From Treponemataceae bacterium (GTDB taxonomy: Bacteria; Spirochaetota; Spirochaetia; Treponematales; Rectinemataceae), in assembly GCA_963677895.2 (NCBI GenBank), contig CAXXGJ010000002.1:64001-128000 (forward strand): 64,000 nt of DNA, in the 5' to 3' direction. Below, piece by piece: positions 1 through 60,228 of the stretch (position 1 is its first letter; each line of letters starts with the position of its first letter). Position numbers and translations under genes: made by a program. The notes beneath the pieces are model-generated. The model ran no database searches, was not told the DNA's origin, and saw only the letters and a program-made list of their open reading frames with translations.

Positions 1-540
1 GTTCACGGCGCGGAGCGACGCGTAGAGGGCGAACACGACAAGGGGAATGCTCAGCCATACGTCGACGGCAAGGGCGGCGATGAAGCCTGCCGCTGGATCG
101 GTGAGAAGGTTCAGTTCCCTTCCCAGCAATGCCGAAAGCATCGACTTCCCGCCGCTGCCGTGGATGATCATCCGCCAGATGGGCACCGAGATGAAGGATG
201 GCACTCCCCAGGGCACGAGAATGGCCGCGAATATGATCTTGAAAGATTTTTCCGCGTCCAGGAGGACGGAGGCCAGGATGAATCCTATGAGGACGGAGAG
301 GCTGGCCGAGAGGAGGGCCCAACCCAGCGTTATGCCCAGGGAAAGAACGAATGCCCTGTCCTCGACGAGGGTTCTGAAATTGTCGAGACCCGCCCAGGCG
401 GCCTGGCCGTAGCTGTCGTGATAGAGGGAACTGGCCGCGGCAGTGAAGAAAGGGAGTATGCCCGCGGCCAGAATGAGAAAGGCGAGAGGAAGGATGGCCC
501 ATTTCGTCACCCTGGATCTGCCGAGAATCGACGCTTTCAT
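1..540 (-). CDS. Carbohydrate (CUT1/MalF-like) ABC transporter permease, 3' end outside window
   Basis: Manual translation from ATG 540: MKASILGRS...YGQAAWAGLDNFRTLVEDRAFVLSLGITLGW...ILVPWGVPSFISVPIWRMI...VDVWLSIPLVVFALYASLRAVN; MalF-type motifs. Confidence 0.85.
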   Translation of the reverse strand, partial: MKASILGRSRVTKWAILPLAFLILAAGILPFFTAAASSLYHDSYGQAAWAGLDNFRTLVEDRAFVLSLGITLGWALLSASLSVLIGFILASVLLDAEKSFKIIFAAILVPWGVPSFISVPIWRMIIHGSGGKSMLSALLGRELNLLTDPAAGFIAALAVDVWLSIPLVVFALYASLRAVN

Positions 541-547
541 CCCTTCC

Positions 548-2035
548 CTAGAAAACGAGATTGATCGACTGAATCTGTTTTACGTTCTTGATCCCCTCGG
601 GCAGACGGGCGATGTTCTTGTCCCAGACGAGGACGAGGGGGAATTCGCTGGGATCGAGGCCCGCCCCATCCTTGTACATGGCGAGTATGACTTCGTCGTT
701 GGCGTCCAGTTCGCGCGAATCGAGGGTGATCTTGTAGCCGTCGACGGCGGTCACCTCGACTTTGTAGCCGGCCTTGGCCGCCGCGCTGTCATAGGCATGG
801 ATGCTCGTGTCCTGCTTGTGCGGCTGGTAGGCGGGATCGTCGGCGTAGCCCAGGAGGAGGTGGAGGGGGAAGCCGGTATAGCTGCCGCTTATTCCCTTGC
901 GTTCGAAAACGACTTCCTTCTTGTGGCAGCTCACGCAGGACTGCACCGTGGCGCGATCCATCGTTCCGTTCATCTTCCCGCCGTAGGAGATGGCGAAGTC
1001 CTTGAAGTCCTTCTGTTTCACGATGATGCGCTTGATCATCTTGACCGAGGTGTGGCCGTCGATGTTGGGATCGTTGGGACCAATTTTCACCGTCCTGATG
1101 TAGCCCGGATCCTTGGGGAGCCAGTCGCCGTCCATCCTGAAGGCCAGAATCCACGTGCCGTCCGCCTCATCGAGCACTTGTTTGCCGGAATAGGTCATCT
1201 CGTAGCCGTCGGTGGCCGCGAACGTTATGGAATCGTCCGCGGAAAGGCTCATGAAACGGGAGAGGATAACCCTGAGGCCCACCCCGCCATAGACGTTGGA
1301 GTACTTTGTCCCGGCGCTGGTCGTGAAGCTTCCCTTGTTTTCCATATAGGCCGGATCTTTTTCCAGGTCGGCGAGGGTATAGGAGGTCTTCACGCCGTTG
1401 ATATCCAGCTCAAGCGCGAAAGAGGCGGCTTCCGAAACCGCCTTGGACGCTGCGAGGCTCGTGGTTATGGAGGCGATCTGCTTGACCCAAAGGTTTTTGG
1501 CCGTGTCGCCGACGATCATGGGTCTGTCGAGGGGCTTGCCGGCCTCGGTATCGGCGAGGATCAGCGCGTCCTGTGCGACATCCTTCGTGGAGAAGGTGGC
1601 GGAAAAACCGTCGGCCGCCGAGAGCGTGACTTCATAGCCTTTGGCCCAGAGTCCGGCGTCGAAGGCATAGGGATGGGAGGAGTCGGAACCGTCGATCATG
1701 GCGATGGCGAGACGGAGGGGGATGCCTGAATAGGTTGTCGCCACGCCTTTTTTATCCACAGTTTTCTGGACATAATCCTTGCCCGCGGCCTTTATCTTCT
1801 GGTAATAGGATTGAGTCAGGCTGTCCTTCCTCGCGCCCGCCAGTTCGATGCTCCAGCCGGTCTCCGCCGCCGACGCGGCCGATGTCGTGTCCGCCGCTGC
1901 CGCTGCGGCCACCGTTGTCGTCGGGACGATCTCGACGAGGGGCTTTGCCGCTTTCTGCGATTGCGATACGCATCCGGCGAGAACGAAAGCGATGGAGACC
2001 GTGATGGCGAGAATGGTCCTCATTCGTCTAGGCAT
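548..2035 (-). CDS. Lipoprotein with three molybdopterin-oxidoreductase-like (Oxidored_molyb-like) repeats and a CxxCH motif
   Basis: Lipobox VLAGC; three repeats of Y-x-G-x-x-L ... A-x-DG(F/Y) ... (W/S/N)VK-x-I; SCVSCH in third repeat. Confidence 0.65.
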   Translation of the reverse strand: MPRRMRTILAITVSIAFVLAGCVSQSQKAAKPLVEIVPTTTVAAAAAADTTSAASAAETGWSIELAGARKDSLTQSYYQKIKAAGKDYVQKTVDKKGVATTYSGIPLRLAIAMIDGSDSSHPYAFDAGLWAKGYEVTLSAADGFSATFSTKDVAQDALILADTEAGKPLDRPMIVGDTAKNLWVKQIASITTSLAASKAVSEAASFALELDINGVKTSYTLADLEKDPAYMENKGSFTTSAGTKYSNVYGGVGLRVILSRFMSLSADDSITFAATDGYEMTYSGKQVLDEADGTWILAFRMDGDWLPKDPGYIRTVKIGPNDPNIDGHTSVKMIKRIIVKQKDFKDFAISYGGKMNGTMDRATVQSCVSCHKKEVVFERKGISGSYTGFPLHLLLGYADDPAYQPHKQDTSIHAYDSAAAKAGYKVEVTAVDGYKITLDSRELDANDEVILAMYKDGAGLDPSEFPLVLVWDKNIARLPEGIKNVKQIQSINLVF

Positions 2036-2062
2036 GGTGTTACTCCTTTCGCATATTCATGA

Positions 2063-3598
2063 TTACGGCTTCGATCCGCCGCTTATGGTTTCCTGGTTGG
2101 CGTCGATAAGCCGGCGCGCTTCCGCGAGGGCCGCGTCCGGCTTCATGCTGCCCGCGAGTATGAATCGCAGAATTTTCCACATCGTGTTTTTATAGGTGCC
2201 GTAGCCCGAGCTGGGAGGTATGACGGCGCCAATTTCGGCGCTTCTGGTCAGGATGGCTTGATAGCGGTCGGCGCTCTCCGCTACCTTCCACGCGTCGGAA
2301 TTCGCCGGGAGTTTGGAGAGGGCTGCCGAAAAGCGATGCTGGACCCCGACGCCGGACAGGTACTCGAGCAGTCTGCGCGCAGTGACGGGGGATTGGGTGG
2401 AGCGCGTCATCGCGAAACCTTTGAAATCGAGGAGGGGCGCCATGGGTTTGCCTGTGGACGAAACCACCGGATAGGGCGCGACGCCGAAGTCCAGGCCTAT
2501 CCGTTCGAACTCGGGAATGGAATAGGACCCGCTCAGTATCATGGCGATTTTGCCCGAAGCGAAGCGCGCCACCATGGCGTCGCGTTCGAGGGGCTCCAGG
2601 TAGCCTCGGTCGATCATCGAGAGAATCCAGGATATGGCCTGTCTGGTTCCCCGATCGTCGGGACGGACTCCGCCGTCGGCATCGGCGATGGAAGGTTTTC
2701 CGAAGCCCATGGCCATGGGCAGAAGCCAATACGCGGAATAGACATTCCAGGAAATGGGCGTTCCGCCGCTCCGGCTTATCCGCGCGGCCATGGCTTCCAG
2801 ATCGTCGGTCGTCCAGGTCAGGGCGGGCGGAACGGGGACCTGTTTCCTGTCGTAGAAAACCAGCTGCGCATCGAAATAGAAGGGAATCGCCCAACGCCGG
2901 CCTTCGGCGCTGAAGGCTGCCGCCCCCTTCTCCACGATATGAGAGGCGTCGATTCGATCCAGGGGCTGGAGGGCCTGCGCCGCCACGAGATCGGGGACAT
3001 TGTCGGACTGGATCATGAGAAGATCGGGCGCGCGTCCCCCGCCGCGCTGGACGGCCAGGAGCTTGGACCTTGTATCCGGCACGTCCACGGCTCTGACCTT
3101 CGCGCCGGAAAGCGTCGCCCAACGTTGGATTTCCGCCTTGAGTTCGGGGACGCCCTCCCAGGAGAGCCAGATTTCCAGTTCCCGTTCGCGGGCCTGGTCT
3201 CCGCTGATGTTTACTGAACTGAAGGAAGCCACCCTGGCATCCGGCGCGAGCAGATCCCAGCCTCCAGAGGACGATTCGACGATATAGAATCCGGAAAGTC
3301 TGTCCGCGAGATCGTCGCCGGTCCAGATTTTGGTCCCGGCCGGGCCGGCGCACTCGATCCTCCATGCTTCCACGAGGGGAGGAAGCAGTTCGGAGACGGC
3401 AAGGCCGCGTTCGATGAAGTTTTTCGCGGGGATGGAATATGAAAGCGCGCGCAGCGCGGTATCGGAGGGCAAGGTTTTTGAGCCGCCGTTAAGGCGCAGG
3501 TCGAATGCCCAGGCCGAAGCATGAAGCGCGAAGGCGAGGCCTACGGCAAGAACAACCGTCCGGAAACAAGGTTCCGGCGGGCTTGAGCGAGTCATCAT
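2063..3598 (-). CDS. Extracellular solute-binding protein (MalE-like) with extra N-terminal ~110 aa domain
   Basis: Signal peptide; APDLLMIQSD, WAIPFYFDAQLVFYD, FASGKIAMILSGSY, DFGVAPYP motifs of sugar-binding family 1. Confidence 0.85.
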   Translation of the reverse strand: MMTRSSPPEPCFRTVVLAVGLAFALHASAWAFDLRLNGGSKTLPSDTALRALSYSIPAKNFIERGLAVSELLPPLVEAWRIECAGPAGTKIWTGDDLADRLSGFYIVESSSGGWDLLAPDARVASFSSVNISGDQARERELEIWLSWEGVPELKAEIQRWATLSGAKVRAVDVPDTRSKLLAVQRGGGRAPDLLMIQSDNVPDLVAAQALQPLDRIDASHIVEKGAAAFSAEGRRWAIPFYFDAQLVFYDRKQVPVPPALTWTTDDLEAMAARISRSGGTPISWNVYSAYWLLPMAMGFGKPSIADADGGVRPDDRGTRQAISWILSMIDRGYLEPLERDAMVARFASGKIAMILSGSYSIPEFERIGLDFGVAPYPVVSSTGKPMAPLLDFKGFAMTRSTQSPVTARRLLEYLSGVGVQHRFSAALSKLPANSDAWKVAESADRYQAILTRSAEIGAVIPPSSGYGTYKNTMWKILRFILAGSMKPDAALAEARRLIDANQETISGGSKP

Positions 3599-3723
3599 TC
3601 CCCCTTTTCAAGCATGGAAGGCTGAACCGTTTCCGGCGCAACCCGATGGCTTTTAGTCCATGGATTTCAGCGGCTCATTTCCATGATGCCGCATATCTTT
3701 AGGAACTAAGGCTCGAAGGAATT
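3597..3723 (-). ncRNA. Moco/Tuco (molybdenum/tungsten cofactor) riboswitch candidate, P3-less form
   Basis: Minus strand: AUUCCUUC-GAGC-CUUAGUU-CCUAA...AUGG-ACUAA...GGGUUG-CG-CCG-GAAA-CGG-UU-CAGCCU-UCC...GAAAA-GGGGGAAUG; tetraloop/receptor pair; P1 pairs with RBS. Confidence 0.75.
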
Positions 3724-3802
3724 CTATGGCTGATTCTATGGCGCCCATTCGCAGGCGTCAAGCGGATGAACCTGTCTTGACGGACAGAGTTACGCGCGGG
3801 GC

Positions 3803-3832
3803 AAAAAAAAGGCGCCCGGGATGGGCGCCTTT
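3803..3832 (-). terminator. Rho-independent terminator
   Basis: AAAGGCGCCC-GGGAT-GGGCGCCTTT hairpin with A8 on plus strand (U-tract on minus) after OMP gene. Confidence 0.8.
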
Positions 3833-3876
3833 CGTATCCGATCCGAATCCGATCGGGATTCGATCGGGATCCGACG

Positions 3877-4377
3877 CTACAGTTTCAGGAGGACGCCGAT
3901 ATAGGAGGCCTCGAGGCCGGTTTCGGCGTTGATGGCGAAGTTGTTCGACAGGAAATAGCTCGTGCCGCCGATCGTGTTGAAGCCGACGCCGGGAAGGATC
4001 GAAAGACCCAGGCCAAAGTACGAATCGAAGTTGCCGACCCAGGCGAGTTCGCTGGGCAGGTTGAGGGCGCCCCAGTTGAAGTGGAGAGTGCCAACCGCGC
4101 CTACCGCGACCGACACCGTGCTGCCGAGATAGAGTCCCGCGCGGCCGGCGACGCCATAGGTGAAGGGGAGTTTTTCGGCGATCGTGAACTTGCCGATGGC
4201 GTATTCAACGCCGCCGCCGACCGAAAGGCCGTACCAATAGCCGAAACCGATGCCGACATTCGCATTTATCGAACCTGGATTGATGAGCATGCCATTTTTT
4301 GAATAGTTAGTGGTTTCCGCGGACGCGAAACCGACGACGACGCAGAGAAGCGCGACAAGCACCGTGAATTTCTTCAT
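3877..4377 (-). CDS. Putative small outer-membrane beta-barrel protein
   Basis: Signal peptide, Gly/aromatic-rich alternating strands, C-terminal YIGVLLKL; RBS AGGAGAGG. Confidence 0.6.
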   Translation of the reverse strand: MKKFTVLVALLCVVVGFASAETTNYSKNGMLINPGSINANVGIGFGYWYGLSVGGGVEYAIGKFTIAEKLPFTYGVAGRAGLYLGSTVSVAVGAVGTLHFNWGALNLPSELAWVGNFDSYFGLGLSILPGVGFNTIGGTSYFLSNNFAINAETGLEASYIGVLLKL

Positions 4378-59566: not shown

Positions 59567-59651
59567 GGAGCGGTGTCCGAGGGGTTTAAGGAGGCGGTCT
59601 TGAAAACCGTTGAACCGCGAGGTTCCGGGGGTTCGAATCCCCCCTGCTCCG
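59567..59651 (+). tRNA. tRNA-Ser(TGA)
   Basis: GGAGCGG/CTGCTCC acceptor stem, CT-TGA-AA loop, long variable arm, GTTCGAATC. Confidence 0.95.
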
Positions 59652-59670
59652 GATACTGCGATATTTTGTT

Positions 59671-59758
59671 GGAGAGGTGCGAGAGCGGCCGAATCGGGCT
59701 CCCTGCTAAGGAGTTGTACCTCTAAAGGGTACCGAGGGTTCGAATCCCTCCCTCTCCG
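59671..59758 (+). tRNA. tRNA-Ser(GCT)
   Basis: GGAGAGG/CCTCTCC acceptor stem, CT-GCT-AA loop, long variable arm. Confidence 0.95.
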
Positions 59759-59764
59759 CTACGC

Positions 59765-59838
59765 GAGGCTATAGCTCAGCTGGATAGAGCTTCAGATTGC
59801 GGATCTGAAGGTCGGAGGTTCGAATCCTCTTAGCCTCA
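59765..59838 (+). tRNA. tRNA-Arg(GCG)
   Basis: GAGGCTA/TAGCCTC acceptor stem, TCAGA-TT-GCG-GA-TCTGA anticodon arm. Confidence 0.92.
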
Positions 59839-59847
59839 TTCTTCGTT

Positions 59848-59933
59848 GGAGAGATGCGAGAGCGGCTGAATCGGGCGGTCTCGAAAACCGTTAAACCTTT
59901 TAGGTTTCGAGGGTTCGAATCCCTCTCTCTCCG
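59848..59933 (+). tRNA. tRNA-Ser(CGA)
   Basis: GGAGAGA/TCTCTCC acceptor stem, CT-CGA-AA loop. Confidence 0.95.
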
Positions 59934-60019
59934 CAAGCCGCGCTTCTTCGTCGCTCCAACGTCGATAAAGCAGGCGTTTTCAGTTTTTCGTTTCTGTTTT
60001 CGTTTCTTTTTTTCTTTTT

Positions 60020-60106
60020 GGAGAGATGACCGAGCGGCCGAAGGTGCGCGATTGGAAGTCGCGTGTACCCGTAAGGGTACCTAGGGTTCAAATCCCTATC
60101 TCTCCG
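60020..60106 (+). tRNA. tRNA-Ser(GGA)
   Basis: GGAGAGA/TCTCTCC acceptor stem, TT-GGA-AG loop, long variable arm. Confidence 0.95.
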
Positions 60107-60116
60107 TAGCATTTAG

Positions 60117-60228
60117 AGCGCAAGAAGCCAGGCACTGTGCTCGTAACCACTGCGGAACCCGCCAGGTCCGGAAGGAAGCAACGGTACGTGGAAGGTGCGG
60201 TGCCGCAGAGCGCCTGGCTTCTTGCGCT
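60117..60228 (+). ncRNA. ffs: Signal recognition particle RNA (small/4.5S type)
   Basis: CAGGTCCGGAAGGAAGCAAC helix-8 motif within long hairpin; directly upstream of dnaX. Confidence 0.9.

Follow-up and report, generated by a model that had tools for sequence, protein, structure and literature searches.

A riboswitch-preceded ABC operon of uncultured Spirochaetia is a candidate salvage system for the tungsten/molybdenum pterin cofactor

In a 64,000-nucleotide stretch of the genome of a Treponemataceae bacterium (the window, in whose numbering all coordinates are given) we examined an operon for an ATP-binding cassette (ABC) importer of the CUT1 type, which is preceded by an RNA of the riboswitch family for the molybdenum cofactor (Moco) and its tungsten form (Tuco). 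The initial annotation of this DNA had read Moco-RNA architecture into the leader of the first gene and had proposed that the transporter takes up a pterin cofactor, its precursor or a metal chelate. The genes that it placed downstream, namely a MalE-like binding protein with an extra domain, a triple-domain lipoprotein and a MalF-like permease, are what domain searches and structural models recover, and the locus is laid out as follows:

3585..3730, minus strand: Moco/Tuco riboswitch aptamer lacking the P3 stem (RF01055, Rfam cmscan)
3733..3761, minus strand: sigma-70-like promoter, TTGACG-17 nt-TAGAAT, a consensus match only (10 of 12 consensus positions)
3803..3833, minus strand: intrinsic terminator of the upstream gene, a GC-rich hairpin with eight U, read in the sequence
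2063..3598, minus strand: substrate-binding protein of 511 residues (SBP_bac_8, 5.7e-21; SBP_bac_1, 4e-16)
548..2035, minus strand: lipoprotein of 495 residues with the lipobox LAGC and a PF00174 match (9.9e-12) on its domain 2
1..540, minus strand: 5' part of a fused, MalF-like permease gene (MalF model, 9.3e-11)

The leader RNA and its conservation

A search of the leader with Rfam cmscan recovered RF01055 (the Moco RNA motif) across model positions 1-135 of 135 with 56.2 bits, well above the gathering score of 36 (E 9e-11), and in the printed covariance-model alignment of the window RNA the P3 stem is wholly deleted. This significant match bears out the architecture assigned to the leader of 2063..3598, whose individual elements are all legible in the sequence: P1 is formed by AUUCCUUC (3722-3715) paired with GGGGGAAU (3604-3597), P2 (UUAGU/ACUAA) encloses the tetraloop receptor CCUAA...AUGG, P4 ends in a GAAA tetraloop, and only eight nucleotides, with no P3, separate P2 from P4. 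The 3' strand of P1 (3604-3597) takes in the ribosome site (GGGGG) together with the A and U of the start codon at 3598, so that P1, once formed, should block translation; read in this way, the leader should be a translational OFF platform. As the single-sequence fold energy of the window RNA is unremarkable (z -1.33), support for the RNA comes from the covariance-model score and from conservation.

To assess this conservation we used 55 related loci obtained from a one-genome-per-species scan, which are mostly from Spirochaetota, with three from Thermotogota; uncultured Spirochaetia commonly have a member of the lipoprotein family. In 55/55 loci the binding-protein gene is followed by those for the lipoprotein and then the permease, as far as each contig reaches. 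The Rfam scan covered 50 of the 55 loci, the other five having no upstream region. Of the 45 loci that include the 5' end of the binding-protein gene, 44 have an RF01055 match at the gathering score immediately in front of that gene and on the same strand (39.6-85.6 bits), such that the orthologous operons have kept the RNA. The 45th (L053:3260-3427) has a sub-threshold RNA of 28.8 bits with a 58-nucleotide insert in place of the P4 tetraloop region, and may be a decaying or remodelled riboswitch. The five scanned loci with no RNA match lie on contigs truncated within the binding-protein gene or beyond it. Most start codons fall within the last 5-13 nucleotides of the RNA match. P3 is absent in 42/42 full-length aligned leaders, and RNAalifold on these 42 recovers P1, P2, P4 and P5, with 13 of 22 pairs changed on both sides.

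According to those portions of Regulski et al. 2008 (PMC2408646) that treat the subject, Moco RNAs lacking P3 go with tungsten-cofactor genes, and a representative from E. coli represses when Moco is made; P3-less RNAs are also noted there before putative sulphite oxidase genes in S. wolfei, for which these portions offer no explanation. The window RNA falls into the P3-less subclass, proposed to be Tuco-specific, by the absence of P3 and by the presence in the genome of AFOR_N genes (aldehyde:ferredoxin oxidoreductase family, AOR).

The promoter ends 3 nucleotides before the riboswitch match (1 site versus 0.2 expected in shuffles). The terminator of the preceding gene folds at -20.2 kcal/mol (z -4.42), with 0/200 shuffles as good; it was not in the list of the pattern scan. 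With its own promoter and with the preceding gene terminated, the leader begins a separate transcription unit. A further terminator that the pattern scan listed inside coding sequence was disregarded. The upstream open reading frame (3877..4377, 166 residues) has no family in Pfam or NCBIfam; between its stop and its terminator there is a short series of imperfect GGAUC/CGAUC-type repeats (3836-3880, minus strand).

The transporter, the lipoprotein and their predicted docking

The binding protein comprises a signal peptide, a beta-rich N-terminal extra domain (about residues 33-135) and a MalE-like two-lobe core. Its only Pfam matches are SBP_bac_8 and SBP_bac_1, and not PF13531 (ModA/WtpA) or PF12849 (TupA). 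The MalE and GanS equivalog models of NCBIfam score it far below their cut-offs, and its likeness to MalE is thus weak at the sequence level (MalE model 1.4e-18, 67 bits versus a cut-off of 291). In an AlphaFold2 model (pLDDT 93.2) the core superposes on GacH (3jzj), Thermotoga maritima MalE (2gha/6dtu) and the E. coli maltose-binding protein with TM scores, on the target, of 0.79-0.85. The extra N-terminal domain, which accounts for ~105 additional residues in the window protein, is conserved among 46 orthologues. We considered whether it might be a fourth SUOX-like module: a profile comparison with lipoprotein domain 2 using hhalign gave E 0.0015 at a probability of 8-17% over 46 columns only, and a protein atlas returned small hypothetical proteins, 19-22% of the members having PF00174, at a score (0.78) that lies below the meaningful level.

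The permease is a 589-residue fusion of two BPD_transp_1 domains, whose gene reaches past the window edge to G000:C2:62771. This gene closes the operon and is followed by a convergent patatin-like gene; in other loci the two domains are either separate or fused. The operon itself has no ATPase gene in any locus examined, and neither an ATPase nor another conserved gene adjoins it, the genes after the permease differing between loci, and no sugar-use genes were found in the examined loci, where the flanking genes vary and are unrelated. The genome possesses one OB_MalK-type ATPase, which is unlinked (G000:C21:120150-120314; L073:3399-4520, minus strand; 373 residues) and combines ABC_tran, OB_MalK and TOBE_2 domains; its neighbours include no gene recognised as one for a permease or binding protein. 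CUT1 systems tend to share one ATPase, and this MalK/MsmK-type protein probably powers all the CUT1-type importers of the genome.

The lipoprotein consists of a low-complexity linker followed by three tandem domains (about 60-195, 205-340 and 347-495), each with a minimal version of the fold shared by sulfite oxidases (SUOX) and PruR. Its sole Pfam match is PF00174, the Moco-binding domain of sulfite-oxidase-type enzymes. Foldseek searches with a structural model (pLDDT 87.7) recovered sulfite oxidase, SorA, SoxCD (E about 1e-7) and YedY, with probability 1.00 to 1sox, 2blf, 2xts and 1xdq, and the single domains match the PruR pterin-binding proteins with TM scores of 0.64-0.73 on the target. 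Profile comparisons indicate that the three domains are paralogous (1 vs 3, 99.4%; 2 vs 3, 94%; 1 vs 2, 80%). As the lipoprotein profile reached the sequences of solved structures, those of sulfite oxidases, only with E 0.5-0.8, the SUOX relationship rests on the Pfam match and the fold.

Among 109 relatives of the lipoprotein the lipobox cysteine is present in 70%, a strict twin-arginine motif in none and a loose one in 7. A protein devoid of a twin-arginine translocation (Tat) motif would cross the membrane unfolded and hence without cofactor, which argues against an exported molybdenum or tungsten enzyme and in favour of a binding protein that acquires its ligand on the outside. A D-G-Y/F strand is conserved in all three domains and a tryptophan near the end of domains 1 and 3; these are possible counterparts of the pterin-binding residues of PruR, in which, as described in the sections of PMC11194511 on its binding site, the pterin is sandwiched between a conserved tyrosine and tryptophan and hydrogen-bonded to an asparagine. 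Two other candidate sites were discarded. A conserved serine of domain 2 as the replacement of the molybdenum-binding cysteine was rejected since the profile alignment of the domains places the motif elsewhere, and a C-x-x-C-H heme c site in domain 3 was rejected as a defining feature, its first cysteine being present in 71% of the relatives and replaced by glycine in 29 of the 109. No haem, cytochrome, YedZ-like partner or dimerisation domain was found in the operon proteins and loci.

Variants of the lipoprotein occur in several lineages. Behind a 65.3-bit Moco RNA, the genome G069 (contig C59; L077:202-4324) has an operon for a 487-residue binding protein, a 288-residue two-domain lipoprotein and a 637-residue fused permease; this lipoprotein, missed by our first threshold, has counterparts of domains 1 and 2 (hhalign 99.3%, E 1e-20) but not of domain 3, implying that the latter, with its conserved Cys-His, is dispensable in some lineages. 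In families f5, f10 and f38, which include closed genomes, the profile match of the lipoprotein is split in two, at positions about 8-380 and 407-479 (e.g. G113:C1:2950053-2951408 and G163:C1:1421742-1423148, in genomes that also have MoaC), pointing to a different loop before the last part of domain 3. G187 is a further carrier that has MoaC and a closed or near-closed genome.

Complex models of the binding protein (30-505) with the lipoprotein (58-495) gave ipSAE values of 0.76, 0.76 and 0.78 in three runs, against 0.00 for the best of 3 controls. Of 157 solved complexes, 116 attained the mark used for this score, as did 2 of 215 mismatched pairs, a calibration that is only rough for the custom alignments used here. 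The runs share at least 77% of contacts, with partner pLDDT of at least 84. In the predicted interface, lipoprotein domain 1, through its D-G-F/Y strand (142-149), contacts the extra N-terminal domain and both lobes of the binding protein, whose interface residues include the invariant Q211 and P404 and the nearly invariant R399 (stretches 76-79, 132-138, 179-186, 206-215 and 399-405 of the binding protein; 96, 135-149, 179-181, 197-203 and 304-307 of the lipoprotein). No solved complex of such a kind is known to us, and it therefore seems unlikely that the predictor merely reproduced a structure from its training. The geometry of the predicted interface would suit the hand-over of a ligand.

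Cofactor need and supply in the carrier genomes

The window's genome (completeness 92.76%, contamination 5.46%) has three intact AFOR_N genes, coding for AOR-family enzymes, which are tungsto-bis-pterin enzymes, and one molybdopterin-dinucleotide enzyme (Molybdopterin PF00384 with Molydop_binding PF01568). Cofactor-using enzymes are thus present, and the biosynthesis genes were not found: searches of this genome for MoaC, Mob_synth_C (MoaA), MoaE, MoeA_N and MoCF_biosynth (MogA/MoaB) gave no match, each of which was positive in 11-13 of 14 control genomes. Neither was a ModA, WtpA or TupA seen in it; of its seven SBP_bac_11 matches the five examined resemble PhnS or ThiB, and the single PBP_like_2 match is PstS. 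What it has kept is a stand-alone MobA-like nucleotidyltransferase of 229 residues (G000:C38:473454-473888; L071:1333-2022, minus strand), for which all 11 NCBIfam matches are MobA/MocA models (best 1e-21, below cut-offs). MobA performs the last tailoring step, which dinucleotide enzymes require, and the retention of late steps after the loss of early ones is the usual signature of salvage.

The same imbalance recurs among the relatives. In a marker census of 50 of the 55 carrier genomes, AFOR_N is present in 48/50, MoaC in 13/50 (absent in 37/50) and MoeA_N in 15/50, 14 of these above the cut-off; 33/50 have AFOR_N with neither MoaC nor MoeA_N. A MobA-like match, called at E <= 1e-12, is found in 37/50 carriers and in 27 of the 37 that lack MoaC; in the control genomes it is found in 9/14, all nine with MoaC. 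We then considered 300 genomes spread evenly over the class, counting as carriers those with a lipoprotein match at E <= 1e-20. Of these, 49/300 carry the lipoprotein, with AFOR_N in 47/49, and carriers amount to 2/162 among genomes devoid of AFOR_N. The MoaC-less carriers of this sample span at least 12 families, and 15 carriers that are at least 90% complete lack MoaC. Taking AFOR_N as strong at E <= 1e-55, a threshold set after the data had been seen (family f16 having weak matches only), the operon is carried by 23/34 strong-AFOR_N genomes without MoaC versus 24/83 with MoaC. Eleven strong-AFOR_N genomes without MoaC had first seemed to lack the operon; one of them (G069) has the variant operon. 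An RNA search of all 11 recovered a Moco RNA in three, located before the variant operon (G069), an AOR gene (G293) and an aldehyde dehydrogenase gene (G212).

Family f16 stands apart: 19 of its 21 genomes, which are small (1.2-3.4 Mb) and mostly near-complete, have a single weak AFOR_N match (E 1e-13 to 1e-52), one has MoaC and none has the operon.

Further Moco RNAs accompany other genes. The window's genome has two, at G000:C37:2972-3109 (plus strand) and G000:C18:174615-174752 (minus strand; loci L005 and L006), with 39.4 and 36.4 bits; each precedes a gene for a 562-residue NAD-type aldehyde dehydrogenase (Aldedh, PF00171) and adjoins a PAS histidine kinase and a TRAP transporter, the block being duplicated. 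In G212, a genome of an unrelated family, the Moco RNA likewise stands before an Aldedh gene (G212:C308:649-767; L076). By analogy with MetE under B12 riboswitches, these enzymes look like a cofactor-independent backup for the tungsten AOR that would be repressed when cofactor is present. Many Moco RNAs of carriers precede, by about 0.8-1 kb, the AFOR_N match of a ~700-715-residue AOR class (e.g. G001:C29:79448-79608, G024:C6:172070-172252, G006:C193:4861-5031 and G046:C136:78925-79095), and others stand directly before ordinary AOR genes (G030, G035, G036, G032, G029 and G028). In G036 and G016 a MobA-like gene is directly upstream of the Moco RNA and AOR gene. Genomes with the pathway have Moco RNAs before moa/moe clusters (G031:C118, G026:C56, G017:C138 and G046:C136).

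A candidate importer of ready-made cofactor

Drawing on comparative genomics and structure prediction, we think it fairly probable that the operon codes for an ABC importer that salvages ready-made tungsten- or molybdenum-pterin cofactor (Tuco/Moco), or at least a compound at the molybdopterin level, under feedback control. The earlier proposal of a CUT1-type transporter for a pterin cofactor, its precursor or a metal chelate is thereby supported and, through the census of biosynthesis genes, narrowed. Since many carriers lack MoaE, MoeA and MogA/MoaB, which are needed to use either a precursor or a metal chelate, these two fit poorly, and the ready-made metal-pterin cofactor appears to fit best of the three.

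The mechanism that we propose would run as follows: 1) the lipoprotein, Sec-exported and lipid-anchored, would capture the labile cofactor outside the cytoplasm by means of its three domains of predicted SUOX/PruR-type fold, two of which may together hold the bis-pterin form used by AOR; 2) it would dock via domain 1 on the binding protein, with the extra N-terminal domain as part of the predicted docking site, and would there hand over its ligand; 3) the fused permease would import the ligand, powered by the single unlinked MalK/MsmK-type ATPase of the genome, a role suggested by the fact that no locus has an ATPase gene of its own; 4) the cofactor would be loaded into AOR and, after guanylylation by the MobA-like enzyme, into the dinucleotide enzyme; 5) when plentiful, it would bind the P3-less riboswitch, whereupon P1 would form over the start codon and ribosome site of the first gene, and the importer would no longer be made. 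For this last step the RNA family and architecture are as described above, and the response to ligand is presumed from the family.

At even odds, in our estimation, stands a wider proposal: that this is the first defined bacterial importer of a complete tungsten/molybdenum pterin cofactor; that many free-living anaerobic spirochaetes and some Thermotogota are true Tuco/Moco auxotrophs living on cofactor of their neighbours, captured by a tandem lipoprotein that docks on a specialised binding protein; that the cofactor is a community good like B12; and that the same riboswitch turns down NAD-dependent aldehyde dehydrogenase backups.

Several points weigh against the salvage of ready-made cofactor. 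We infer each of its functional steps, be it ligand, transport or regulation. We know of no environmental pool of Moco or Tuco, and found no component that would serve the outer membrane of these diderm cells. The nearest solved relatives of the binding protein bind sugars (maltodextrins or acarbose). In the lipoprotein a metal-binding cysteine cannot be placed: domains 1 and 2 have no conserved cysteine, and C370 (97%), the only conserved one, is part of a helix in the model of domain 3 rather than of a SUOX-type hairpin. The molybdenum-binding cysteine of SUOX enzymes sits in a long beta-hairpin, as the structural passages of PMC11194511 have it, and free Moco/Tuco is described as very labile in the relevant parts of PMC9026282. 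Without MoeA, moreover, the assembly of the bis-pterin tungsten centre of AOR is unexplained by our model.

On the genomic side, the carriers are metagenome bins, some of them incomplete, and related genomes are not independent counts; genes of the moa/moe type often cluster, such that one assembly gap could hide several of them (92.8% completeness and 5.5% contamination for the window's genome). The operon is also not confined to auxotrophs: MoaC is present in 25/49 carriers versus 98/251 non-carriers, and having the operon is thus not in itself linked to a loss of biosynthesis. Conversely, 10 of the 34 strong-AFOR_N, MoaC-less genomes are still without the operon, 8 of the first 11 exceptions having neither a Moco RNA nor an operon in the search of all 11. 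To these come 18 genomes of family f16 with weak AFOR_N and with neither MoaC nor the operon, which have either a divergent AOR-like protein not needing the cofactor or another case of need without supply.

The ligand could instead be another pterin or an intermediate, such as cyclic pyranopterin monophosphate (cPMP), metal-free breakdown products of molybdopterin, neopterin or monapterin, or the proteins could serve in PruR-like pterin sensing. Of the intermediates of the pathway cPMP is the most stable, and the carriers with moa/moe genes (13/50 in the census; 25/49 in the even sample) could use an intermediate; the closest structural matches of single domains, moreover, are PruR proteins, which bind small non-Moco pterins in a shortened cleft, going by the portions of PMC11194511 on their ligands. 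In the window's genome, however, a cPMP or metal-free pterin could not be finished, as MoaE, MoeA_N and MogA/MoaB are missing there along with MoaC, and 33/50 carriers with AOR lack MoaC and MoeA_N. The RNA of 44/45 loci is a Moco/Tuco riboswitch rather than a sensor of folate or another pterin, no DcpA-type signalling partner is found in the loci, and carriage follows AOR (AFOR_N in 47/49 carriers; carriers 2/162 among genomes without it), all of which makes this alternative unlikely. We give slightly less credence to an uptake of the metal as tungstate, molybdate, a chelate or a thio-form, with the SUOX-fold domains binding an oxyanion and the system replacing ModABC, TupABC or WtpABC. Moco RNAs commonly precede molybdate/tungstate transporters, to judge from the sections of PMC2408646 on their genomic contexts; SUOX active sites bind oxyanions, as the titles of structures with bound sulfate or phosphate indicate; and the window's genome, in which no candidate for ModA, WtpA or TupA was recognised, might be expected to have some route for the metal. 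But the metal would be useless without the genes for molybdopterin synthesis and insertion, which are missing in the window's genome and in most carriers, the binding protein is MalE-like and not of the PF13531 or PF12849 kind, and the retention of a MobA-like enzyme upon loss of the earlier steps fits a supply of cofactor, not of metal.

The PF00174 match and the SUOX fold would also be expected of an exported molybdenum/tungsten oxidoreductase of the sulfite-oxidase/MsrP kind, lodged in a CUT1 sugar operon and controlled as a cofactor-using enzyme by the riboswitch. Such an arrangement would agree with the maltodextrin- or acarbose-binding relatives of the binding protein, with the many extra Moco RNAs of carriers that precede cofactor-using AOR genes, and with the P3-less RNAs that, in the portions cited above, precede putative sulphite oxidase genes in S. 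wolfei (PMC2408646). We nevertheless hold it to be very improbable: the three genes invariably occur as a unit, the complex models dock the lipoprotein onto the binding protein, a conserved cysteine is missing from domains 1 and 2, and the searches brought up no haem, cytochrome, YedZ-like partner or dimerisation domain. Exported cofactor-containing enzymes use Tat, and 0/109 relatives have the strict motif. Even then, the enzyme would still need a cofactor that most carriers cannot make.

A salvage importer of ready-made cofactor would share features with several known systems. PruR of Agrobacterium tumefaciens, Vibrio and Klebsiella (PDB 7kou/7kos, 7kom, 7kp2 and 7rkb; PMC11194511) has the minimal SUOX fold of about 140 residues that each lipoprotein domain matches, and, in the passages of that paper on its function, is exported by a signal peptide, non-catalytic and binds pterin in the site corresponding to the Moco site. 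In contrast to PruR, which has a single domain, signals to the cyclic di-GMP enzyme DcpA and binds small pterins of the folate branch, we find three fused, lipid-anchored domains in an ABC importer operon with a Moco/Tuco riboswitch and co-occurrence with AOR. The candidate importer also resembles MalEFGK2 and other CUT1 sugar importers in the core fold of the binding protein, the MalF-like permease domains and its presumed reliance on the unlinked MalK/MsmK-type ATPase, but has in addition the extra N-terminal domain, a fused permease, the pterin-fold lipoprotein and a cofactor riboswitch, with no sugar-use genes in the loci. In B12 uptake, BtuFCD works with BtuB and, in Bacteroides, with the corrinoid-capturing surface lipoprotein BtuG, under riboswitch control. 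There too, producers as well as non-producers scavenge a large and costly metal cofactor, a lipoprotein captures it before it reaches the transporter, the importer is turned off by a riboswitch that senses the finished cofactor, and auxotrophs keep the late tailoring enzymes; the cofactor and the riboswitch class are different, however, as are the ABC core (type II there; type I and MalFGK-like here) and the capture protein (a beta-propeller there; SUOX-fold here). ModABC, TupABC and WtpABC are likewise ABC importers of the Moco/Tuco riboswitch regulon that supply molybdenum and tungsten enzymes, as set out in parts of PMC2408646, but with binding proteins of PF13531 or PF12849 they carry oxyanions, and most operon carriers could not use the bare metal.

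A 2021 review (PMC9026282), in its section on this point, states that Moco is known to be taken up by one organism only, C. elegans, from its diet. There, ready-made and probably protein-protected Moco is likewise obtained from other organisms, but by an animal, whereas a defined bacterial transporter would be involved here. The 2013 census of riboswitch regulons, in its Table 3, has uptake systems for B12, thiamin, riboflavin, queuosine and folate and places Moco under biosynthesis only, and a passage of a 2025 paper (PMC12282271) speculates that some type 11 secretion proteins act in the uptake of cobalamin or molybdopterin. We found neither a bacterial Moco/Tuco importer nor the present operon in the full-text literature, supplementary tables (PMC2408646, PMC3766115) and subscription journals being outside the scope of this search. 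In kind, then, a riboswitch-controlled ABC importer for cofactor salvage is known, as for B12 or thiamin; what is new is the class of substrate and the capture module docking on a modified binding protein.

The textbook view, to our knowledge, holds that Moco and its tungsten form are too unstable for uptake and that every user cell must make them. Should the importer be real, this view would be overturned for bacteria across many anaerobic lineages, and the tungsten/molybdenum cofactor would join the vitamins traded in microbial communities. Genes for AOR or formate dehydrogenase in genomes without moa genes would no longer be read as dead ends. The proteins would offer natural high-affinity binders and stabilisers of the cofactor, for biochemistry and for its delivery in human Moco deficiency, and the operon a clean physiological test bed for the presumed ligand of the P3-less riboswitch class.

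Elsewhere in the window, five tRNA genes are directly followed by a small signal recognition particle (SRP) RNA gene (59567-60222, plus strand).

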